DNA of 12,747 bases, taken from the NCBI GenBank assembly GCA_000004985.1, contig GG739001.1; one strand, 5' to 3'. The notes under the pieces are model-generated. The model saw only the letters and a program-made list of their open reading frames with translations, was not told the origin of the DNA and ran no database searches. Positions 652 to 12,747 of the stretch are shown in pieces; the stretch's first letter is position 1; every line of letters begins with the position of its first letter. The DNA comes from Naegleria gruberi. Taxonomy: Eukaryota. Position numbers and translations under genes: made by a program.

Positions 652-1086
652 ATCTACAATCTCAAATTCTGAAATATATTCAAAATGTTAAACTAAATGT
701 AGCGTCCCACACCAGAAACATTTACAATTGGAAGAAAATATGATCAGAAACAAGATTTTCGAATTGGTGTTTCTGGAGTGACTGGTGTAGTTGGAGTTTC
801 AGGTTGAGTTGGTAGCCACAACAATTTTCACAGCACTGAACGAATCACTTTGAATATTTTTGGATAGATATTGTTAAATTTGAAGATTCAAATGCCAAAC
901 CATCACATGTAATTCTTGAAATTGAGTACAAATTATAATCCCCTCCTCTCCGCAAGCTCCACCAATACATCATTTCCAAAATGCAATGACACTAATCACA
1001 GTAACCTTCTTAAAAATCTTCAAATTTTCCCTCTTTCACTGAATTTTGTGAATAGAAAACCAAAAAAAAAGATTTACAACACCAAC

Positions 1087-3401
1087 ATGCCACCATTGAT
1101 CAGTTCATCATCTCTAAATGGTGATGAATTGGAAGAACTTGATCTCAATGAAGATTATGCTGGTGGTGAAGTGTTTAAGAATGGGAATGATGATGATTCG
1201 TCCCCAGAGCCATTGCATAAGGGAGCTTCTTGGATATCAATCTTGTTCTTTATGTTTGCTGGCAAGTTGATGAGTATTGGCTTTAGAAGGGCTGGTGAGA
1301 ATTATTTGATGAAAATGATAAAGAACATGTTGAATCGTGTTGGAATCTTTGGTCGATTTGAGATTAGAAAGGAGGAGGGAATGAATCATGGGGATATTCC
1401 CAAGTTGGCCGAAAGTGAAAAGTCGAGCAATCATTGTGAATTATTCGAAAGAGAATATAGAGAATTGTATCGTGAGAGGGGCAATTATCGTGAAGATGGA
1501 GGATTTAGAAAGAATTATGGAGGTTTATTGTTGAGAGTAATTGAGAGAGTTTATAGAAGAAGAGGATTGTATACAGTTCCTTTGTGGAGAGTTGCAGAAA
1601 TGATATGTTTGTACATGTCACCACTCATTCTCTATATTTTACTCGAGTCAATCAAGGTTGATGAGTATGTGAAAAGTGCTATACCAGCAGCCACTCAATA
1701 TTTAATTCCAACATCTTCTTACGGAATATTGAGTAATGACACTGTCATTGCATCCAATTTCACAATGAACAATGAAACAAATTGGTTTCAAGAAAACTTG
1801 CCACTCTCAAATATTTTCTTCCAGTTAACTTTGGTAATTTTATTATTCACTTTCAACTCAATGGCCTCATTGTTTAATCATCAGTACTTTTTTGCAACTT
1901 CTAAAATTTGGATTCCACTCATTGGAGCTCTTCAAGGTTCAATCCTGCAAAAGTTGAATAGAATCAAGAGTGTGGAAAGAAGAAAATTCAAAAGTGGTGA
2001 GTTGAACAATCTATTTGCCATAGACACCAGAAGTGTAGCCATGGATGGTATTGATATTCATGAAGCTTGGTTAATGCCATTGACCTTAATTGTTGGTATT
2101 GTGTTGGTTTTCGTATTTTTTGGATATAGCTCACTTGTTGGTGTTCTTGCAATGATTATATGTGGACCAGTTCTTCCATTTTTGGGTAAATATCAAACTA
2201 GTTTTGCAGGCAAAGCTGCACAATTCAGAGATGAAAGAATCAAACACATGAGTGAAATATTGAATGGTATTAGAATTGTTAAATTTTATGTTTTTGAAGA
2301 TAAGATGAAAGAAAAGGTTAATCAAGCAAGAGAAAAGGAATATTCACTCCTCCGAAAGTATGTTACTGTAATGAGTGGATATTGCTTTACTTCATCCCTG
2401 ATGGCCATTGTTGGAAGTGGAGCTACTTTTGTGACTTTCTACTATGCAGGTGGAGATTTGACTTTACCTAAAATGTTTACTGGACTAGTGTTGTTTGGAA
2501 CCTTTAGATTACCATTGTTGCATTTACCTTGGGCCATTTCAAACTTGGTTTTCGCCTATGTGAGTGCCAAACGTATTGGTAGATTCTTGTTTAGTGAAGA
2601 TACTGTGAAATTACCACATGATCATGAAAATAAGGCAAACTTGTGGGAATATGATGAAGAACAAACTGAATTTTCATCCATTATGGATAATGACACTGCT
2701 ATTGAATGTAAGGATGCTTCCATTGGATGGTCAGAAGAGGAAGCTCCAACCCTCACTGATTTAAATTTGAAAATTGAGAGAGGAAAGCTCTACTGTGTCA
2801 TTGGTAATACTGGTAGTGGAAAATCAACCTTAATTTCCTCCATTTATGGTGAATCTGTTGTAAAGAGCGGAAAAGTTAAAGTTAATCCATTGTGTAATAT
2901 TTCACTCAGTGATGAAACCCCATGGTTGATCAATGCATCTGTAAGGGAAAATATTGTCTTTGATAAGAATTTAACTTTTGACAGGGAAAGATATAATAGA
3001 ATATTGGATGTTTGTCAATTAAGAGATGATCTCAGTCGATTCCCAAATTATGATAAGACTGAAATTGGTTTTTCTGGAATTAATCTTTCAGGAGGTCAAA
3101 AACATAGAATTAGTTTAGCCAGAGCTTGTTACAGTAATTCTGAAATTGTCTTGATGGATTCCACACTCAACTCAATTGATGCCAAATTGTGTAGAAAGAT
3201 TTTCAATGAATGCATTTGTGGATTTTTGAAGGATAGAACTAGAATTCTCGTTACACATTCACTTCAATTATTGGAAATGGCTGATGAAGTCATTGTTTTT
3301 GAGAATGGAAAGTTGATTGCTAAAGGGTCTTTGAAGGAAATTAAGAATTCCTATGACTTTTCCAAACTAATCTCTGAAGAAAAGGAAGAAAGTGAAACAG
3401 A
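1087..3401 (+). CDS. ABC transporter, ABCC/MRP-like (multidrug-resistance-associated-protein family). This is the 5' partial: TMD1 + NBD1, and the 3' part is lost in the N gap
   Basis: The first ATG of the long open frame is at 1087, preceded by an A-rich tract. TMD1-type conserved stretches are present: GELNNLFAIDTRSV... and ERIKHMSEILNGIRIVKFYVFE (compare ABCC GEIVNLMSVD... and NEILNGIKVLKLYAWE). NBD1 carries Walker A GNTGSGKST (around 2803-2829), the ABC signature LSGGQKHRISLARA (3085-3126), Walker B IVLMD followed by Ser rather than Asp/Glu, and the H-loop THSLQ. The ORF-track start at 916 is a TTG alternative-start artefact. The frame continues into the N run with no stop, so the gene is truncated by the gap. 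Confidence 0.85.
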
Positions 3402-6400
3402 NNNNNNNNNNNNNNNNNNNNNNNNNNNNNNNNNNNNNNNNNNNNNNNNNNNNNNNNNNNNNNNNNNNNNNNNNNNNNNNNNNNNNNNNNNNNNNNNNNN
3501 NNNNNNNNNNNNNNNNNNNNNNNNNNNNNNNNNNNNNNNNNNNNNNNNNNNNNNNNNNNNNNNNNNNNNNNNNNNNNNNNNNNNNNNNNNNNNNNNNNNN
3601 NNNNNNNNNNNNNNNNNNNNNNNNNNNNNNNNNNNNNNNNNNNNNNNNNNNNNNNNNNNNNNNNNNNNNNNNNNNNNNNNNNNNNNNNNNNNNNNNNNNN
3701 NNNNNNNNNNNNNNNNNNNNNNNNNNNNNNNNNNNNNNNNNNNNNNNNNNNNNNNNNNNNNNNNNNNNNNNNNNNNNNNNNNNNNNNNNNNNNNNNNNNN
3801 NNNNNNNNNNNNNNNNNNNNNNNNNNNNNNNNNNNNNNNNNNNNNNNNNNNNNNNNNNNNNNNNNNNNNNNNNNNNNNNNNNNNNNNNNNNNNNNNNNNN
3901 NNNNNNNNNNNNNNNNNNNNNNNNNNNNNNNNNNNNNNNNNNNNNNNNNNNNNNNNNNNNNNNNNNNNNNNNNNNNNNNNNNNNNNNNNNNNNNNNNNNN
4001 NNNNNNNNNNNNNNNNNNNNNNNNNNNNNNNNNNNNNNNNNNNNNNNNNNNNNNNNNNNNNNNNNNNNNNNNNNNNNNNNNNNNNNNNNNNNNNNNNNNN
4101 NNNNNNNNNNNNNNNNNNNNNNNNNNNNNNNNNNNNNNNNNNNNNNNNNNNNNNNNNNNNNNNNNNNNNNNNNNNNNNNNNNNNNNNNNNNNNNNNNNNN
4201 NNNNNNNNNNNNNNNNNNNNNNNNNNNNNNNNNNNNNNNNNNNNNNNNNNNNNNNNNNNNNNNNNNNNNNNNNNNNNNNNNNNNNNNNNNNNNNNNNNNN
4301 NNNNNNNNNNNNNNNNNNNNNNNNNNNNNNNNNNNNNNNNNNNNNNNNNNNNNNNNNNNNNNNNNNNNNNNNNNNNNNNNNNNNNNNNNNNNNNNNNNNN
4401 NNNNNNNNNNNNNNNNNNNNNNNNNNNNNNNNNNNNNNNNNNNNNNNNNNNNNNNNNNNNNNNNNNNNNNNNNNNNNNNNNNNNNNNNNNNNNNNNNNNN
4501 NNNNNNNNNNNNNNNNNNNNNNNNNNNNNNNNNNNNNNNNNNNNNNNNNNNNNNNNNNNNNNNNNNNNNNNNNNNNNNNNNNNNNNNNNNNNNNNNNNNN
4601 NNNNNNNNNNNNNNNNNNNNNNNNNNNNNNNNNNNNNNNNNNNNNNNNNNNNNNNNNNNNNNNNNNNNNNNNNNNNNNNNNNNNNNNNNNNNNNNNNNNN
4701 NNNNNNNNNNNNNNNNNNNNNNNNNNNNNNNNNNNNNNNNNNNNNNNNNNNNNNNNNNNNNNNNNNNNNNNNNNNNNNNNNNNNNNNNNNNNNNNNNNNN
4801 NNNNNNNNNNNNNNNNNNNNNNNNNNNNNNNNNNNNNNNNNNNNNNNNNNNNNNNNNNNNNNNNNNNNNNNNNNNNNNNNNNNNNNNNNNNNNNNNNNNN
4901 NNNNNNNNNNNNNNNNNNNNNNNNNNNNNNNNNNNNNNNNNNNNNNNNNNNNNNNNNNNNNNNNNNNNNNNNNNNNNNNNNNNNNNNNNNNNNNNNNNNN
5001 NNNNNNNNNNNNNNNNNNNNNNNNNNNNNNNNNNNNNNNNNNNNNNNNNNNNNNNNNNNNNNNNNNNNNNNNNNNNNNNNNNNNNNNNNNNNNNNNNNNN
5101 NNNNNNNNNNNNNNNNNNNNNNNNNNNNNNNNNNNNNNNNNNNNNNNNNNNNNNNNNNNNNNNNNNNNNNNNNNNNNNNNNNNNNNNNNNNNNNNNNNNN
5201 NNNNNNNNNNNNNNNNNNNNNNNNNNNNNNNNNNNNNNNNNNNNNNNNNNNNNNNNNNNNNNNNNNNNNNNNNNNNNNNNNNNNNNNNNNNNNNNNNNNN
5301 NNNNNNNNNNNNNNNNNNNNNNNNNNNNNNNNNNNNNNNNNNNNNNNNNNNNNNNNNNNNNNNNNNNNNNNNNNNNNNNNNNNNNNNNNNNNNNNNNNNN
5401 NNNNNNNNNNNNNNNNNNNNNNNNNNNNNNNNNNNNNNNNNNNNNNNNNNNNNNNNNNNNNNNNNNNNNNNNNNNNNNNNNNNNNNNNNNNNNNNNNNNN
5501 NNNNNNNNNNNNNNNNNNNNNNNNNNNNNNNNNNNNNNNNNNNNNNNNNNNNNNNNNNNNNNNNNNNNNNNNNNNNNNNNNNNNNNNNNNNNNNNNNNNN
5601 NNNNNNNNNNNNNNNNNNNNNNNNNNNNNNNNNNNNNNNNNNNNNNNNNNNNNNNNNNNNNNNNNNNNNNNNNNNNNNNNNNNNNNNNNNNNNNNNNNNN
5701 NNNNNNNNNNNNNNNNNNNNNNNNNNNNNNNNNNNNNNNNNNNNNNNNNNNNNNNNNNNNNNNNNNNNNNNNNNNNNNNNNNNNNNNNNNNNNNNNNNNN
5801 NNNNNNNNNNNNNNNNNNNNNNNNNNNNNNNNNNNNNNNNNNNNNNNNNNNNNNNNNNNNNNNNNNNNNNNNNNNNNNNNNNNNNNNNNNNNNNNNNNNN
5901 NNNNNNNNNNNNNNNNNNNNNNNNNNNNNNNNNNNNNNNNNNNNNNNNNNNNNNNNNNNNNNNNNNNNNNNNNNNNNNNNNNNNNNNNNNNNNNNNNNNN
6001 NNNNNNNNNNNNNNNNNNNNNNNNNNNNNNNNNNNNNNNNNNNNNNNNNNNNNNNNNNNNNNNNNNNNNNNNNNNNNNNNNNNNNNNNNNNNNNNNNNNN
6101 NNNNNNNNNNNNNNNNNNNNNNNNNNNNNNNNNNNNNNNNNNNNNNNNNNNNNNNNNNNNNNNNNNNNNNNNNNNNNNNNNNNNNNNNNNNNNNNNNNNN
6201 NNNNNNNNNNNNNNNNNNNNNNNNNNNNNNNNNNNNNNNNNNNNNNNNNNNNNNNNNNNNNNNNNNNNNNNNNNNNNNNNNNNNNNNNNNNNNNNNNNNN
6301 NNNNNNNNNNNNNNNNNNNNNNNNNNNNNNNNNNNNNNNNNNNNNNNNNNNNNNNNNNNNNNNNNNNNNNNNNNNNNNNNNNNNNNNNNNNNNNNNNNNN

Positions 6401-7460
6401 NNNNNNNNNNNNNNNNNNNNNNNNNNNNNNNNNNNNNNNNNNNNNNNNNNNNNNNNNNNNNNNNNNNNNNNNNNNNNNNNNNNNNNNNNNNNNNNNNNNN
6501 NNNNNNNNNNNNNNNNNNNNNNNNNNNNNNNNNNNNNNNNNNNNNNNNNNNNNNNNNNNNNNNNNNNNNNNNNNNNNNNNNNNNNNNNNNNNNNNNNNNN
6601 NNNNNNNNNNNNNNNNNNNNNNNNNNNNNNNNNNNNNNNNNNNNNNNNNNNNNNNNNNNNNNNNNNNNNNNNNNNNNNNNNNNNNNNNNNNNNNNNNNNN
6701 NNNNNNNNNNNNNNNNNNNNNNNNNNNNNNNNNNNNNNNNNNNNNNNNNNNNNNNNNNNNNNNNNNNNNNNNNNNNNNNNNNNNNNNNNNNNNNNNNNNN
6801 NNNNNNNNNNNNNNNNNNNNNNNNNNNNNNNNNNNNNNNNNNNNNNNNNNNNNNNNNNNNNNNNNNNNNNNNNNNNNNNNNNNNNNNNNNNNNNNNNNNN
6901 NNNNNNNNNNNNNNNNNNNNNNNNNNNNNNNNNNNNNNNNNNNNNNNNNNNNNNNNNNNNNNNNNNNNNNNNNNNNNNNNNNNNNNNNNNNNNNNNNNNN
7001 NNNNNNNNNNNNNNNNNNNNNNNNNNNNNNNNNNNNNNNNNNNNNNNNNNNNNNNNNNNNNNNNNNNNNNNNNNNNNNNNNNNNNNNNNNNNNNNNNNNN
7101 NNNNNNNNNNNNNNNNNNNNNNNNNNNNNNNNNNNNNNNNNNNNNNNNNNNNNNNNNNNNNNNNNNNNNNNNNNNNNNNNNNNNNNNNNNNNNNNNNNNN
7201 NNNNNNNNNNNNNNNNNNNNNNNNNNNNNNNNNNNNNNNNNNNNNNNNNNNNNNNNNNNNNNNNNNNNNNNNNNNNNNNNNNNNNNNNNNNNNNNNNNNN
7301 NNNNNNNNNNNNNNNNNNNNNNNNNNNNNNNNNNNNNNNNNNNNNNNNNNNNNNNNNNNNNNNNNNNNNNNNNNNNNNNNNNNNNNNNNNNNNNNNNNNN
7401 NNNNNNNNNNNNNNNNNNNNNNNNNNNNNNNNNNNNNNNNNNNNNNNNNNNNNNNNNNNN
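3402..7460. other. Assembly gap (4,059 N). All ORF-track entries crossing it are artefacts
   Basis: The run is uninterrupted n characters. The ORF track translates it as X in four overlapping ORFs on both strands. Confidence 1.
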
Positions 7461-7584: not shown

Positions 7585-7657
7585 TGCTGACGGACGGGAT
7601 CGAACCGGCGACCAATGGCTTATTAGACCAACGCTCTACCGACTGAGCTACGCCAGC
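7585..7657 (-). tRNA. tRNA-Ile (anticodon AAU, read as IAU)
   Basis: The reverse complement is GCTGGCGTAGCTCAGTCGGTAGAGCGTTGGTCTAATAAGCCATTGGTCGCCGGTTCGATCCCGTCCGTCAGCA (73 nt). The 7-bp acceptor stem is GCTGGCG/CGTCAGC with one G-U. The D arm is GCTC-AGTCGGTA-GAGC. The anticodon loop is CTAATAA, giving anticodon AAT. The T arm is GCCGG-TTCGATC-CCGTC with GTTCGATC, and the discriminator is A. There is no encoded CCA, consistent with a eukaryotic gene. One mismatch occurs in each of the anticodon and T stems. A T4 run lies 4 nt downstream. Confidence 0.85.
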
Positions 7658-7786: not shown

Positions 7787-7808
7787 ACCAACTGAGCTAC
7801 GCCAGCTT
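7787..7808. repeat. Direct repeat copy 2. This is an orphan 5' fragment of tRNA-Ile (acceptor 5' strand + D stem/loop only) and is not followed by the rest of a tRNA
   Basis: accaactgagctacgccagctt. Its reverse complement, GCTGGCGTAGCTCAGTTGGT, equals tRNA positions 1-20 with one T/C difference. The sequence after it (ATTTAATAATTTTAACG...) is not tRNA-like. Confidence 0.8.
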
Positions 7809-8045
7809 CTAGAAGACCCTTAATGAACTTAGCAAATACCTTACCAATTAACATCATGGTGGACAAGCTAAAAGTACTATTTTTGAACATTTTGGTAAAT
7901 TGTGGTTGGTTCTCTTCTAACAGGAATTCAGAAGATGTCACATCTCTTAAGAACATCATAAAACTTGACAAGAAAAAATAAGCAAACAAAGCAGATCTGC
8001 AAGATTTTGAAAATTAATTTCGGAGGAACTATTCATCAAAAAAAC

Positions 8046-9333
8046 ATGGAGAAAAAACTCTACTCTCTCCAACGAGAAGAAATATTTTCAGATGATATTT
8101 GTTTTGAAATAATTTCCATGATTGATGATTCGTGGTTTATTTTGAATAATTGTTCCTTGATTTCAAAACAATTCTTTAATGTGATCAAGGAACGTTCAAA
8201 ACTTTTTATTGAATTTAAAAAAAAATTTACAGAAAAAAGAATTGAACTATTCACAAAGAGTCAATTTATGAATAGTATTGTTAAAGTTAAATTTTCAACA
8301 AATTTGTTTGTCTCTATTGAAAATCACAAATTCATAAGTGAAATGAAACAATTAACTTCACTTAATATTTCTAACAATCAAATTAATGATGAAACTGCCA
8401 AATCAATAATTGAAATGAAACGATTAACATCACTTGATATTGGTGGAAATCAAATTGGTGATGAAGGAATCAAATCAATAAGTAAAATGAAACAATTAAC
8501 ATTACTTGATATTAGTGGAAATAGCATTGGTGATAAAGGAGTCAAACCAATTAGTGAAATGAAACAATTAACATCACTCAATATTTATAACAACGAAATT
8601 GGTGTAGCAGGATCCAAATTTATAATTGAAATGAAACAATTAACATCACTTGATATAAGCTACAATAGCATTGGTGATGAAGGAGCCAAATCAATAAGTG
8701 AAATGAAACAATTAACATCACTCAATATTAGTGGAACATAGCATTGGTGTAGAAGGAGCCAAATCAATAAGTGAAATGAAACAATTAACATCACTTGATA
8801 TTGGTGAAAATCAAATTGGTGATGAAGGAGCCAAATCAATAAGTGAAATGAAACAATTAACATCACTTACTATTAGTGGAAATAGCATTGGTGATGAAGG
8901 AGTAAAATCAATACGTAAAATGAAACAACTAACATCATTTAATATAAGCTACAATGAAACTGGTGTAGCAGGAGCCAAATTTATAAGTGAAATGAAACAA
9001 TTAACATCACTTGATATAAGCTACAATGAAATTGGTGATGAAGGAGCCAAATCAATAAGTGAATTGAAACAATTAACATCACTTACTATTAGTGGAAATA
9101 GCATTGGTGTAGAAGGAGCCAAATCAATAAGTGAAATGAAACAATTAACATTACTTGATATTGGTGAAAATCAAATTGGTGATGAAGGAGCCAAATCAAT
9201 AAGTGAATTGAAACAATTAAAGTCACTTACTATTAGTGAAAATCAAATTGGTGATGAAGGAGCCAAATTTATAATTGGAATGAAACAATATGGTTCCTTT
9301 AAATTACGATTAGTAAACCTAATATGGATGTAG
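8046..9333 (+). CDS. F-box + RNI-type leucine-rich-repeat protein. The frame is broken by a 1-nt insertion at about 8737, which is either a pseudogene lesion or an assembly/sequencing error
   Basis: The protein starts MEKKLYSLQREEIFSDDICFEIISMIDDSWFILNNCSLISKQFFNVIKERSKL, a pattern like the F-box LPxEIxxxIxSxLxxxxLxxxxxVSKxW. About 13 tandem 24-aa LRRs follow, of the form SEMKQLTSLDISGNSIGDEGAKSI. The frame shifts from ORF 7965..8741 to ORF 8731..9333 at gtggaaCatagc (8731-8742). The paralogous repeat at 9093-9104 reads gtggaaatagc and lacks the C. The ATG at 8046 is the first ATG in frame. Confidence 0.75.
8337..9275 (+). repeat. Tandem array of about 13 near-identical 72-bp units, which are the coding LRR units. 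A higher-order block of about 360 bp (5 units) is duplicated at about 95% nucleotide identity (8641-8910 matches 9001-9270)
   Basis: The unit ...agtgaaatgaaacaattaacatcacttgatat...ggtgatgaaggagccaaatcaata... recurs every 72 nt. The long blocks 8641-8910 and 9001-9270 match almost base for base. Confidence 0.85.
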
Positions 9334-9501
9334 AAAGTATTTTAACAGTCCAACCTGCATTACAATTGACAGTGTTATTGTAACTGGAGTGGGATTGAAA
9401 CAAGCAAGGAATTTCATAGATTGGATAACTTCCACCATAAAAATTGCAATCAACACTTGCTTGAGTTCCAGCAGTTCCACTTAAAAAAAATAGGCAGAAC
9501 A

Positions 9502-10284
9502 ATGTTCCCATTTCACAAACGGAAAACCCAACTGTTGGACGAAACTTCATTGGAAACAGTGGATATTTTGTCTCTTGTTTTTCAATTTCTCGAGCTGAAA
9601 GAATTATTCGCTCTCCAAAAAGTATCACCCTTCTTCTACCGAACCATTGAACATTTGAAATCCTTACTGATCCGACCAATATATGAAGTTGGTTTAGTTT
9701 CGTCCGATAAGAAACAATTATCGGAATTTCTTCAACTTACTTTAAAATCAGAATTAATTAGTTCAGCCACAAAGGAAAACCCACAAAAAGTTTCAAGTAC
9801 TAGATACACTTATTATTCTACAACCGAAATCGACATGACAGATAAAAATGATGGCAATCAGCTCAAAAGTGTGAAATTTGGAGAGCATCATATGATTCAT
9901 GCTTTTAACAAGGTTGAAAAGGAGTTTGTCTTTAAGAATGATAGATTTAGAGTATTCTTTTATCCGTTGTATTGTGAAAAGAGTACGAGTTTATCACATG
10001 ATGATTATCAACGACTGGATGGGTTCATATTTTTGAATCCAAACAGCAAAGATGGATATTCAACAATGCCAAATGGATGTAGTTATTGTGCAACACTCTT
10101 GGATTATAATAATTCTTCAGTTGCCAATGAAACAGTACTAATGCCAGTAAGAAATTTCGGATCTTTTAAAGTTGAGAAAGTGAGTGAAAGATATTCGATA
10201 GAACAATCAATTCTCGACTGTATTAATTACATTTCAGAGAACTCAAATCGATCAATTCAATTGAACTCAATAGGAGATGGTTAA
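9502..10284 (+). CDS. Hypothetical protein with an N-terminal F-box-like motif and no LRRs. Its function is unknown
   Basis: The first ATG in frame is at 9502 (the ORF-track start at 9421 is TTG). The N-terminus reads ...SLETVDILSLVFQFLELKELFALQKVSPFFYRTIEHLKSL, which fits the F-box hydrophobic pattern. The remainder (…NGCSYCATLLDYNNSS…) has no recognised motif. The stop is TAA at 10282-10284. Confidence 0.55.
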   Translation: MFPFHKRKTQLLDETSLETVDILSLVFQFLELKELFALQKVSPFFYRTIEHLKSLLIRPIYEVGLVSSDKKQLSEFLQLTLKSELISSATKENPQKVSSTRYTYYSTTEIDMTDKNDGNQLKSVKFGEHHMIHAFNKVEKEFVFKNDRFRVFFYPLYCEKSTSLSHDDYQRLDGFIFLNPNSKDGYSTMPNGCSYCATLLDYNNSSVANETVLMPVRNFGSFKVEKVSERYSIEQSILDCINYISENSNRSIQLNSIGDG

Positions 10285-10337
10285 AATCATGTCTATTAGA
10301 AAAAATTTCATTAATCATTAAGGAACCCAATGATGAA

Positions 10338-10697
10338 ATGGTTGCCACTAAAATATCAGATCAAAGAGCTGATACTCTCAGAGAAAGTGAGATACATGAC
10401 CAGAAAATTGAATTCTTCAATTATCCACACAATGTCCAATTCAGTCTTTTGAAAAGACTTTACACAGCTCATTTGGGAAATGAAAATGTTAAATTCAAAG
10501 ATGATCTCTATGCCATTCAGGTTATTTTCAATCAGCAATTCAATTCTAGAAAAAGGGATTCATACGATGACCATTTGGTGGAAATGAAAACTACGCTCTC
10601 ATTCAATTTAGTATCTCAGGAAATTAAGTTCGAATACAAGAATATTACAAGAGCAAGTAGTATTGGCATTAGTAATAAAAAGTGTATCATTTGTTAG
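10338..10697 (+). CDS. Hypothetical small protein (119 aa) ending …NKKCIIC
   Basis: The ORF is ATG-initiated, and its codon usage resembles that of its neighbours. The C-terminal Cys-aliphatic-aliphatic-Cys is vaguely CaaX/prenylation-like. No other motif was recognised. Confidence 0.35.
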   Translation: MVATKISDQRADTLRESEIHDQKIEFFNYPHNVQFSLLKRLYTAHLGNENVKFKDDLYAIQVIFNQQFNSRKRDSYDDHLVEMKTTLSFNLVSQEIKFEYKNITRASSIGISNKKCIIC

Positions 10698-10838
10698 TCA
10701 ATTCCAATTAAGAAAATTCTTCTTAGATCGGAGCAATATATAAATTTTAATTTTAATTAATATTTTAAAAAATGTTGTATTAACAACTTCATCCATCTAC
10801 CAAATCATCATCACGAATAACAAAATAAATCATCAAAA

Positions 10839-11921
10839 ATGGGCAATAATCAAACCACTTCTCACAGATCCCTTCCTACCGAGCATGCATCTTTCTCCAA
10901 TTCTTCTCGCGAATATGCCAATCAATACATAATGATCGCAGGTGGTCCATCAGTAGTAATTTATCAAGGCTTGGTTGATCAAATAATTTCTATCGAAAAT
11001 CGAATAGAAAATGCTGCTAATTATGAGAAGGTAAAGAGTGAATGTTTGAAAGGTATTCATCAACGTTTGGTGAAATATTTCCCTGTTCATTTTCATGATA
11101 CAGTTTCGGAAAAGATAGAAGAACAATTGGTTGACCTGTGGCATAGCCCCAATTTTAAAGAGGAATACTTTGCGAATAGATTCCAGGTAGATCCATACTT
11201 GGTCTTGCCAACTGTATTTAATAATTTGGAGAGAGGAATCAAATTTAATTTGAAAAGAACTTGCTTGTTCCAACCAGCAGGTAGACAATATTATTTCACA
11301 ACATGCTATTCGAAAACAACTGATAATTTTCCACACAGCCGTAATCAAAAGTTGACATTTGAATTATTTGCTAATTGTTTTTCTGCTGATACTTGGGCTG
11401 ATGTAGTTGGAGCATCATTTTCTCTATCTGACTATGATAACAATCAATATTTAGATGAATTTTATCAAGTGTGTAGAAGATTGTCTGGATTTTCTACATA
11501 CAGAATGATTTTAATATTTACTCATCTTGATGTTCTCAATGAAAAGATAAAGTTGGGACTAATTAACTTTGGAGGAGATAAAGATATAGAAATTCGAAAA
11601 GAATTCAACCATATTCCAAAAGAATGTGCTCTCATCATTGAATATCTCATCAAAGAAGCCATCAAAAATATAGAAATGAATCCAAGCCATGACTTTCCCA
11701 ATAGGACATTGGAATACCACATTGTAAATACATCAAGTGACAGTGATATGAAAGAATTATTGGATTGTATTTGTATTGGAGCAAATTCTAAGAGAAAATG
11801 CTTCATATCCTCTAAAATTGAAATGCCACCTTTCTCATATCCTAACACCAGATTCAAGAGCAACATGCACAGAACCTCAGAACTAAATCAGTTTTGTGAT
11901 ATTGCAATATTGCTAAATTGA
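10839..11921 (+). CDS. Divergent heterotrimeric G-protein alpha-subunit-like protein. Its nucleotide-binding motifs are degenerate (candidate pseudo-GTPase), it has an N-myristoylation motif, and it carries a C-terminal extension
   Basis: (1) N-terminus MGNNQTTS fits the N-myristoylation consensus M-G-x-x-x-S/T, as in G-alpha. (2) YIMIAGGPSVVIYQGLVDQI aligns with the G-alpha P-loop region [21 protein letters not shown] but lacks GKS/T. (3) CLFQPAGRQYYF aligns with FDVGGQRSERKKW, so DxxGQ is lost. (4) FSLSDYDNNQYLDEFYQVCRRLSGFSTYRMILIFTHLDVLNEKIK aligns closely with FCVALSEYD…LFDSICNN…SIILFLNKKDLFEEKIK, with NKxD replaced by THLD. (5) YHIVNTSSDSDMKELLDCI aligns with HFTCATDTxNIRFVFxAV, so TCAT is lost. 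(6) About 45 extra residues follow the core. The stop is TGA at 11919-11921. Confidence 0.6.
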   Translation: MGNNQTTSHRSLPTEHASFSNSSREYANQYIMIAGGPSVVIYQGLVDQIISIENRIENAANYEKVKSECLKGIHQRLVKYFPVHFHDTVSEKIEEQLVDLWHSPNFKEEYFANRFQVDPYLVLPTVFNNLERGIKFNLKRTCLFQPAGRQYYFTTCYSKTTDNFPHSRNQKLTFELFANCFSADTWADVVGASFSLSDYDNNQYLDEFYQVCRRLSGFSTYRMILIFTHLDVLNEKIKLGLINFGGDKDIEIRKEFNHIPKECALIIEYLIKEAIKNIEMNPSHDFPNRTLEYHIVNTSSDSDMKELLDCICIGANSKRKCFISSKIEMPPFSYPNTRFKSNMHRTSELNQFCDIAILLN

Positions 11922-11966
11922 CTTTAGTTTTCCATTTCCTAAAGGTCAGAACTCTCAAAATAAAAA

Positions 11967-12747
11967 ATGAGCCAACAAGAAAAGGAGGAAACAGTGGCAC
12001 CAACCAAAGAAGAATCACAGCCAGTTTTTCCCGATGATGTGATATTTGAAATTATTTCCTTCAATAATGATTTTAAATTTACAGTAAGGAGTTGTGCGTT
12101 GGTTTCTTCACAGTGGTTTAATATCATTTCGGAAAGATCAAAACTTTCACTCACACACAACAGTAAAAAGAAAATTAATGGCCAATTTTTACAGCGTATT
12201 GTAGCTGTATTCCATTTCTTGATCAAGTATTTGATCTCAAGAACTTGACTACCCTTGACGTTAATTGTATGAAAATTAAAGATGAAGGAGTAAAGATAAT
12301 AAGTGAAATGAAACAGTTGACCAATCTTAATGTAGGCAGCAGTGGTATTAGTGTTGAGGGAGTCAAATATATCAGCGGCATGAATCAATTAACTAATCTC
12401 AATATAAGCCGCAATAATATACGAGCAGAAGGAGCCCGTTACGTTAGTGAAATGAAACTATTAACCAATCTTAATATTTATTTAAACGGTATTAGAGCAG
12501 AAGGTACCAAATACATCAGTGAAATGAAAGAATTGACTTGTCTTAATATAATGAGTAATGCAATTCACGATAAAGGCGCAGAATACCTTCGTCAAATGCC
12601 TAAATTGAAGACACTCAATATTAATTCAAATAGTATCAGTGTAGAAGGAGCCAAATTTATTAGTGAAATACAGTCATTAACTAATCTTGACATTGGTTTC
12701 AATACTATTGGAGATGACGGTGTCAAATTTATAAGCAAAATGGAAAA
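11967..12747 (+). CDS. F-box + RNI-type LRR protein, a paralogue of the 8046 gene. It is 3'-partial, running off the window, and has an apparent 1-nt frameshift between about 12179 and 12225
   Basis: The N-terminus is MSQQEKEE…VFPDDVIFEIISFNNDFKFTVRSCALVSSQWFNIISERSKLSL, an F-box very similar to that of gene 8046. The track ORF stops at 12248 (…HFLIKYLISRT*). The +2 frame, which is open from 12179, reads …FLDQVFDLKNLTTLDVNCMKIKDEGVKIISEMKQLTNLNVGSSGISVEGVKYISGMNQLTNLNISRNNIRAEGARYVSEMK… (24-aa LRRs) to the end of the window. The likely true reading is …RIVAVFHFLDQVFDLKNLTTLDV…, with an indel in or near the ttt homopolymer at 12215-12217. Confidence 0.7.

Follow-up and report, generated by a model that had tools for sequence, protein, structure and literature searches.

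This report concerns the window formed by one whole scaffold of Naegleria gruberi (contig GG739001.1; 12,747 bp, G+C about 33%), and in particular two genes of its right-hand end, here named from the nucleotide at which they start, gene 8046 and gene 11967, which join an N-terminal F-box-like module to leucine-rich repeats (LRRs). Four genes lie head to tail on the + strand in the right-hand 4.7 kb of the scaffold. A first-pass annotation, made from the letters of the DNA, had described this segment as a tandemly duplicated cluster of three F-box genes interleaved with a G-alpha-like gene, and had proposed that the proteins with an F-box serve as adaptors for substrates, of the Skp1–Cul1–F-box (SCF) type. 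Open reading frames (ORFs) on the + strand are present at all three of the gene starts given there (8046, 9502 and 11967).

The first gene, gene 8046, spans 8046–9333 and encodes an F-box-like three-helix module (aa 13–52; nt 8082–8201), a linker and 13 LRRs of 24 residues each. The second, gene 9502 (NAEGRDRAFT_76478), occupies 9502–10284 and has a probable C-terminal continuation in another frame at 10283–10697. It is followed by an intact ORF of 360 aa at 10839–11921, the G-alpha-like gene of the first-pass annotation. The fourth gene, gene 11967, begins with an ORF at 11967–12248 that contains an F-box-like module (aa 22–58; nt 12030–12140) and a short linker and ends in TGA; its LRR region, with at least six full 24-residue repeats, runs in a shifted frame from 12245 to 12747, where the scaffold end truncates it.

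The N-terminal module and the predicted fold

Scanned one by one, the three proposed F-boxes find little in Pfam. Gene 8046 matches no F-box family at E ≤ 1, the match of gene 11967 to PF12937 (F-box-like) reaches 19.6 bits against a cut-off of 24.3 and so is sub-threshold, and the match of gene 9502 to PF00646 (F-box) is marginal at 20.9 bits against a cut-off of 20.5. The F-box identity of genes 8046 and 11967 emerges only with a family profile and with structure, and it is at that level that the original assignment stands for these two genes. Their modules are homologous to each other (BLASTP E 2e-15), with 41% identity over 73 aa, so that the description of the two F-boxes as near-identical has to be given up.

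We built a module profile from the two sequences, genes 8046 and 11967, and used it in an exhaustive HMMER search of representative proteins. The family that it revealed comprises, when clustered at 50% identity, no fewer than 26 clusters, and 16 of the 26 representatives were matched at E ≤ 1e-10. When the 100-aa N-terminus of gene 8046 served as query, a word-indexed homologue search gave no match, and the same kind of search with the family alignment, A2, returned three proteins only; it was the exhaustive search of representatives that exposed the family. Its named representatives are all from N. gruberi, where they lie on different large scaffolds, and the others come from ENA and Logan assemblies. 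The architecture is uniform throughout: the module is followed by a linker with the motif SQFLxNI and then by 24-residue LRRs. The proposed lineage-specific expansion is upheld in this form, with genes 8046 and 11967 as members of a family restricted to Naegleria that has an F-box-like head and an LRR body. In the databases the family members are called 'predicted protein', 'leucine-rich repeat protein' or 'LRR_RI domain-containing protein', and none of the names seen tells that the family has an F-box. Our literature searches found no paper describing an F-box plus LRR family of Naegleria.

Taken across the family, the F-box signal is considerably clearer. Among 28 aligned modules, 15 match PF12937 (E ≤ 0.01) and 11 match PF00646, with a best E value of 2.7e-6. 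Aligned by hhalign against ten reference F-boxes (Skp2, FBXL2, FBXL3, FBXW7, BTRC, TIR1, FBXO42, Cdc4, FBXO2 and cyclin F, all ten of which pass the Pfam thresholds), the family profile A2 gives a probability of 95.9% and an E value of 6.4e-9 over 34 columns that cover helices H1–H3. A sequence search of the PDB with the profile has a single match at E ≤ 1, and this is the F-box of FBXO42 (E 0.083). The core positions of the F-box are kept across the family in the pattern xDDIxxEILSF...LISKQW, the consensus being F-x-D-D at the start of the F-box and SKQW in helix 3.

An AlphaFold model of residues 1–231 of gene 8046 (8046–8738), built with the family alignment, is of high confidence, with a predicted local distance difference test score (pLDDT) of 94 and a predicted template modelling score (pTM) of 0.88. 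In the model, three N-terminal helices (residues 16–24, 29–34 and 41–50) lead directly into beta-alpha repeats, the first LRR strand being formed by residues 53–57, and the helical module itself has a pLDDT of about 96. The best query template modelling (TM) scores in Foldseek are those of the FBXL2–SKP1 (0.74) and FBXL17–SKP1 (0.70) structures, and FBXL17 and FBXL2 also give the longest alignments among the fold matches; sequence identity to the FBXL fold matches is 12–20%. The closest solved structures include bacterial effectors of the Legionella LegL1/Ralstonia GALA type, and the model superposes better on the LRR domains of GALA and FBXL proteins than on LRRs of other classes.

Because the Pfam matches of the family, the hhalign alignment, the PDB profile match and the AlphaFold/Foldseek comparison agree, we conclude that the N-terminal module of genes 8046 and 11967 is a diverged F-box. 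The first-pass annotation had been prepared to abandon its proposal if the first 50 residues of these proteins matched no F-box profile; taken literally, this is what gene 8046 does, but the family to which it belongs does match.

Several observations weigh against a working F-box. To the missing or sub-threshold Pfam scores of the two modules can be added the weakness of the PDB profile match, the replacement of the canonical F-box Leu-Pro (by F-S in gene 8046 and by F-P in gene 11967) and the loss of the conserved Trp in gene 8046, which has Phe there, gene 11967 having kept Trp. Furthermore, it is the LRR part that dominates the fold matches, and this part is common to many proteins that have no F-box; many of the top matches are LRR proteins of this kind, among them axonemal DRC5, internalins, NOD-like receptors (NLRs) and RanGAP. 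These points would be accounted for if the module were merely derived from an F-box and did not bind Skp1, and if the proteins were plain LRR scaffolds or LRR binding proteins outside the ubiquitin system, for example in the cytoskeleton or the axoneme. We consider this unlikely, since the core positions of the F-box are conserved family-wide, the profile aligns confidently to all three helices of verified F-boxes, and it is the F-box proteins FBXL17 and FBXL2, among all fold matches, that combine the longest alignments with the best query TM scores.

Class and recent history of the repeats

The 24-residue LRR array reported for gene 8046 is confirmed. It is a tandem repeat of 72 nt in 13.4 copies at 8327–9289 (TRF period 72, 81% matches, score 1126), and the two halves of the array match the Pfam family LRR_6 with E values of 4e-27 and 6e-40. 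LRRs are likewise present downstream of the F-box-like ORF of gene 11967 (LRR_6 E 2.2e-26), in a region that continues past the scaffold end. The period is exactly 24 residues throughout the 13 units of gene 8046, whose consensus is x-x-N-x-I-G-D-E-G-A-K-S-I-S-E-M-K-Q-L-T-S-L-D-I. Asn at position 3 is invariant (13/13), and I5, G6 and G9 are each found in 12/13 units and D7 and A10 in 9/13. Positions 5, 10, 13, 19, 22 and 24 are apolar in 92–100% of the units, compared with 12% elsewhere. In the six units of gene 11967 the same six positions are apolar in 83–100%, compared with 18% elsewhere, and position 6 is not Gly.

This pattern is that of the GALA-LRR, which is defined by a length of 24 residues, an Igd motif at positions 5–7, G9, A10 and six apolar positions, without conserved Cys (PMC2244805). 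Kajava et al. (2008) placed the GALA-LRR in the cysteine-containing (CC) LRR subfamily, the typical companion of F-boxes, and pointed out that databases mislabel it as ribonuclease inhibitor (RI)-like (PMC2244805). In their residue pattern the repeats of genes 8046 and 11967 thus fit the GALA-LRR, and they are a 24-residue variant of the usual F-box partner. The first-pass annotation had set the repeats apart as RI-type, as opposed to CC-type; because they fit the GALA-LRR, which is placed within the CC-LRR subfamily (PMC2244805), this contrast is unsupported, and their length differs from the 28–29 residues of RI repeats. Nor are matches to LRR_6 specific for RI repeats (PMC2244805). The repeats of the two genes also depart from the classical FBXL repeat, with its 26-residue period and Cys at positions 3 and 16; in gene 8046 these two positions are occupied by Asn and Met.

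The units of the gene 8046 array are not equally related to one another. Units 7 and 12, 6 and 11, and 5 and 10 are 99%, 96% and 94% identical in their DNA, while other pairs are about 70–90% identical, and the near-identical blocks (8626–8841 and 8986–9201) are offset by 360 nt. Within the gene, then, a block of several repeats (units 5–7 and 10–12) seems to have been duplicated or converted very recently. It follows that the number of repeats is labile, which is the usual state of such arrays.

Relationships, reading frames and neighbours

The position of genes 8046 and 11967 within the family bears on the proposed tandem duplication. The module of gene 8046 is closest to that of P0003 (XP_002680560.1, on a 695-kb scaffold), with 83% identity, as against 42% to gene 11967. 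The module of gene 11967 is closest to those of P0009 (54%) and P0015 (52%), and the gene scores 91 bits against the family profile. A deletion of about 10 residues in the linker is common to gene 11967, P0009, P0015, P0017, P0020, P0022 and P0023 and is not found in gene 8046. The module tree, with its 77 columns and 50%-identity cluster representatives only, is merely indicative, and the shared indel is the firmer character. The two genes belong to different subfamilies, each with nearer relatives on other scaffolds, which does away with the picture of a recent tandem pair. Since each gene has closer relatives elsewhere and the linker indel differs, any local duplication that links them would be ancient, as far as the sequences can tell.

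That the two genes are instead recent tandem duplicates, forming with gene 9502 one rapidly evolving local array, finds some encouragement in their spacing: two members of the family lie 2.6 kb apart on the same strand, by a rough estimate closer than a family this large, scattered at random, would usually give. The very recent duplication of repeats inside the gene 8046 array could be read in the same way. Set against this are the identity of just 41–42% between the modules, the nearer relatives on other scaffolds, a linker indel that defines a subfamily and separates the two genes, and the lack of any detectable relation between gene 9502 and either of them, so that we regard recent tandem origin as highly improbable.

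Gene 9502 is identical to the annotated protein XP_002668606.1 (UniProt D2W4Z0, 'F-box domain-containing protein'). A weak F-box lies at aa 21–53 (nt 9562–9660), in which both the Leu-Pro and the Trp of the F-box are missing, and no other domain is recognised; against verified F-boxes hhalign gives it a probability of 21.8% only. Pairwise comparison of gene 9502 with the modules of genes 8046 and 11967 found no similarity, and the family profile of these genes does not match it at E ≤ 10. We therefore remove gene 9502 from the duplicated cluster in which it had been placed; on sequence comparison it appears unrelated to genes 8046 and 11967, and its marginal F-box is joined to a C-terminal region that is uncharacterised. 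A paralogue on a 502-kb scaffold, P0030 (NAEGRDRAFT_66342; 406 aa), is 99% identical to gene 9502 and uninterrupted. It reads beyond the stop of gene 9502 at 10282 into GDG-LKSCLLEK... and ends in ...NKKCIIC, as does the ORF at 10338–10697 in the window. Judged from the two proteins, a one-base difference near 10280–10284 would explain the break in gene 9502. Within window positions 10283–10420, about 25 residues are read in different frames, as ISDQRADTLRESEIHDQKIEFFNYPHN in the window and as ISDLFKNKYTLKELILSEKVRYMTRKLNFFNYPHN in P0030, after which the two rejoin; ISDLFKNKYTLKELILSEKVRYMTRKLNFFNYPHN of P0030 corresponds to another frame of the window. This discrepancy looks like a compensated pair of indels between near-identical copies, or like a gene-model artefact.

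All three genes, 8046, 9502 and 11967, are in fact interrupted in frame as assembled, within 4.7 kb. In gene 8046 the ORFs 7965–8741 and 8731–9333 lie in different frames. An extra C at 8737 (AGTGGAACATAGC, as compared with AGTGGAAATAGC in the sister repeats) falls within an otherwise perfect repeat register and shifts the frame into a TAG at 8739–8741. Without this base gene 8046 encodes 428 aa with 13 LRRs, which extend to 9333. The F-box ORF of gene 11967 stops at 12248, and from 12245 onwards the LRRs are read in a different frame; three-frame translation places the change at about 12196–12245, where the linker gives way to the first LRR.

Introns were considered at each break and rejected. 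The break in gene 8046 is a single extra base in a perfect repeat register, and the 99% identical paralogue P0030 reads straight through that of gene 9502. In gene 11967 the only in-phase GT..AG candidate seen is 32 nt long, and its removal would delete RIVAV, which is aligned with SIVKV in the linker of gene 8046. A split of head and body resembling that of gene 11967 was also seen in another family member, P0013 (120 aa, with the F-box module), on a eukaryotic contig of Logan assembly SRR25266763 (9,854 bp; L001, 3961–4727), where a separate 132-aa ORF begins 5 nt after P0013. It may be that splits of this kind recur, whether a short intron or a frameshift causes them, or that gene calling designed for prokaryotes has produced an artefact.

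The frame breaks in genes 8046 and 11967 also count against reading them as working adaptors, as these copies may yield no full-length protein. Breaks of a single base, three of them within 4.7 kb, on an orphan scaffold that contains a gap may reflect either low-quality sequence or a decaying duplicated segment. If the latter, the copies on this scaffold would be decaying F-box–LRR and F-box pseudogenes in a duplicated or alternative-haplotype segment, and this we regard as a serious possibility, if one somewhat short of even. All three F-box genes are interrupted while the adjoining G-alpha-like ORF is intact, and the counterpart of gene 9502 on the 502-kb scaffold is nearly identical, longer and unbroken. 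Furthermore, gene 11967 lacks, from our reading of the alignments, some 7–10 linker residues of its closest relatives, and neither gene 8046 nor gene 11967 has its exact ORF product in the protein collection. However, each break is a single base, one of them apparently in a run of T, and on an orphan scaffold of 12.7 kb, 4 kb of which is gap, errors due to low coverage would look alike; the reading frames are otherwise clean and the repeat consensus is well kept.

The 360-aa ORF at 10839–11921 is identical (100%) to an N. gruberi 'predicted protein' at NCBI, P0001, which has a paralogue, P0002, of 55% identity. Its similarity to G-alpha is remote and partial. PF00503 matches residues 208–309, in the C-terminal part only, with an E value of 3.8e-7 and 30 bits, below the cut-off of 48.8, and the precomputed PF00503 label of the protein source agrees; a full-length match is lacking. 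Sequence searches of the PDB with the ORF gave no G-alpha match, and BLASTP against human GNAI1 found no significant similarity. A local alignment to GNAI1 scores 48, compared with 36 ± 7 and a maximum of 56 for shuffled sequences, and is no better than chance. In this tentative alignment, itself within the range of the shuffled controls, THLD of the ORF stands opposite NKKD of GNAI1. No P-loop of the GKS/T type was seen by direct reading of the 360-aa sequence, and an AlphaFold model from a two-sequence alignment is unusable (pLDDT 32.6). The protein begins with MGNNQ, so that its second residue is Gly, as it is in G-alpha subunits that are N-myristoylated; in P0002, which lies on a 712-kb scaffold, roughly the first 38 residues are missing. 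A word-indexed search at E ≤ 1e-3 found no relatives of P0001 and P0002 beyond each other. From its sequence, the 360-aa protein would at best be a very divergent relative of G-alpha, probably without GTPase activity. It is not a member of the F-box family and has no visible link to the F-box genes.

The rest of the scaffold holds a few further features. An ATP-binding cassette (ABC) transporter gene occupies 916–3396 on the + strand (ABC_membrane E 3e-20, ABC_tran E 3e-18) and is interrupted by a run of N of about 4 kb (about 3400–7460). This gap makes up about one third of the scaffold, which fits a low-quality orphan scaffold. Immediately upstream of gene 8046 lies a tRNA-Ile(AAT) gene on the − strand (7585–7657). 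A second, partial copy of its 5' end, of about 20 nt, is found about 150 nt away (about 7788–7813), and ACTGAGCTACGCCAGCTT occurs both in the tRNA-Ile gene (about 7633–7652) and at about 7792–7809. The repeated stretch may be the remnant of a duplicated tRNA or a tRNA-derived element. At the left edge, an ORF of 73 aa on the − strand (67–288) has no match in a Pfam scan; its C-terminal end, ...FQDGEIIKLNVGGVVFAVSKEL, is one that we take to resemble the start of a BTB/T1 (KCTD-like) domain, and the remainder of such a gene would require an intron or a change of frame. Public databases already contain the scaffold, along with gene 9502 and the G-alpha-like ORF.

Proposed function and known counterparts

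We propose that genes 8046 and 11967 both belong to an FBXL-like expansion specific to Naegleria, within which they have diverged, and that they are probable SCF adaptors, a reading we hold with fair confidence. The proteins would consist of a degenerate three-helix F-box of about 40 residues, a linker with SQFLxNI and a solenoid of 24-residue GALA/CC-type LRRs. If Skp2, FBXL2, FBXL17 and the Ralstonia GALA proteins are taken as a guide, the F-box would dock on Skp1 within a Cul1–Rbx1 SCF ubiquitin ligase, and the concave face of the LRR solenoid would pick the substrate for ubiquitination. N. gruberi is presumed to have Skp1. The SCF proposal of the first-pass annotation is sound as regards architecture, which genes 8046 and 11967 share with SCF substrate receptors; Skp1 binding, a role in the ligase and the existence of substrates are what homology and fold would predict for this family. 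The same division of labour, with docking through the F-box and choice of substrate by the LRRs, has been reported for the Ralstonia GALA effectors (PMC2244805), and an arrangement of this kind is seen in the solved FBXL–SKP1 complexes.

The FBXL receptors (Skp2, FBXL2, FBXL17 and FBXL5) resemble the model of gene 8046 in having a three-helix F-box packed directly onto an LRR solenoid, and FBXL2 and FBXL17 are its best whole-model matches. The repeats differ, as those of classical FBXL proteins are two residues longer and carry Cys where gene 8046 has Asn and Met, and sequence identity is low; the likeness is not put forward as orthology between the window genes and any named FBXL. RI and NLR proteins share with the window proteins an alpha/beta horseshoe with helices on the convex side and a strong LRR_6 match. 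Their repeats, however, are longer than the exactly 24 residues (72 nt) found here, and the F-box–LRR proteins of the window have no NACHT or other NLR domain.

In the GALA/RipG type III effectors of Ralstonia solanacearum, 24-residue LRRs come after an F-box at the N-terminus, an order that the products of genes 8046 and 11967 share. In the Igd motif, in G9 and A10 and in the six apolar positions, the repeats of GALA and of LegL1, the 'GALA protein' of Legionella, resemble those of the window. The differences are that GALA/RipG and LegL1 are secreted bacterial effectors while the window proteins are eukaryotic host proteins, that the repeat helix reads GAKSIS in the window proteins and GAxALA in GALA, and that the window F-box is the more degenerate, gene 8046 having no Leu-Pro. 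LRR and F-box–LRR proteins of giant viruses (Pithovirus-like, Klosneuvirinae and Mimivirus-like metagenomic) are also similar in fold to the gene 8046 model, and some of them are named F-box domain proteins. Identity reaches at most 30% over 232 columns, with the protein of Pithovirus LCDPAC01 (E 3e-11), which we take as a likeness of fold and of LRRs and not as a sign of descent. The idea that this combination of domains is characteristic of amoebae and their intracellular microbes is thus partly borne out, as similar LRR or F-box–LRR proteins do occur in giant viruses and among the Legionella and Ralstonia effectors.

Because the closest solved structures are bacterial effectors, the giant-virus protein is 30% identical and the gene 8046 array was recently duplicated, a more far-reaching reading has some claim to attention: the family could be a set of rapidly diversifying, immunity-like SCF receptors with GALA-type LRRs that bind proteins from intracellular bacteria or from giant viruses, or the family, or its kin in other amoebae, could be the eukaryotic source of the 24-residue F-box/LRR effectors of Legionella (LegL1), Ralstonia (GALA/RipG) and giant viruses. 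We regard either version as improbable, and prefer to see in genes 8046 and 11967 members of a further lineage-specific F-box–LRR family of a well-known kind, one that leaves the current understanding of F-box proteins unchallenged.

For Naegleria, the immediate consequence is one of annotation. A pangenome study of the genus counts LRR genes as Toll-like receptors (PMC9928731), and an LRR family that is headed by an F-box and has neither a signal peptide nor a transmembrane-like N-terminus would be misfiled under that name. The database names of the family can be reinterpreted as standing for proteins that join an F-box to GALA/CC-type LRRs, probable SCF receptors, which is of modest annotation value. 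The family also provides a eukaryotic, amoebal point of comparison for the GALA-type effectors of Legionella and Ralstonia.

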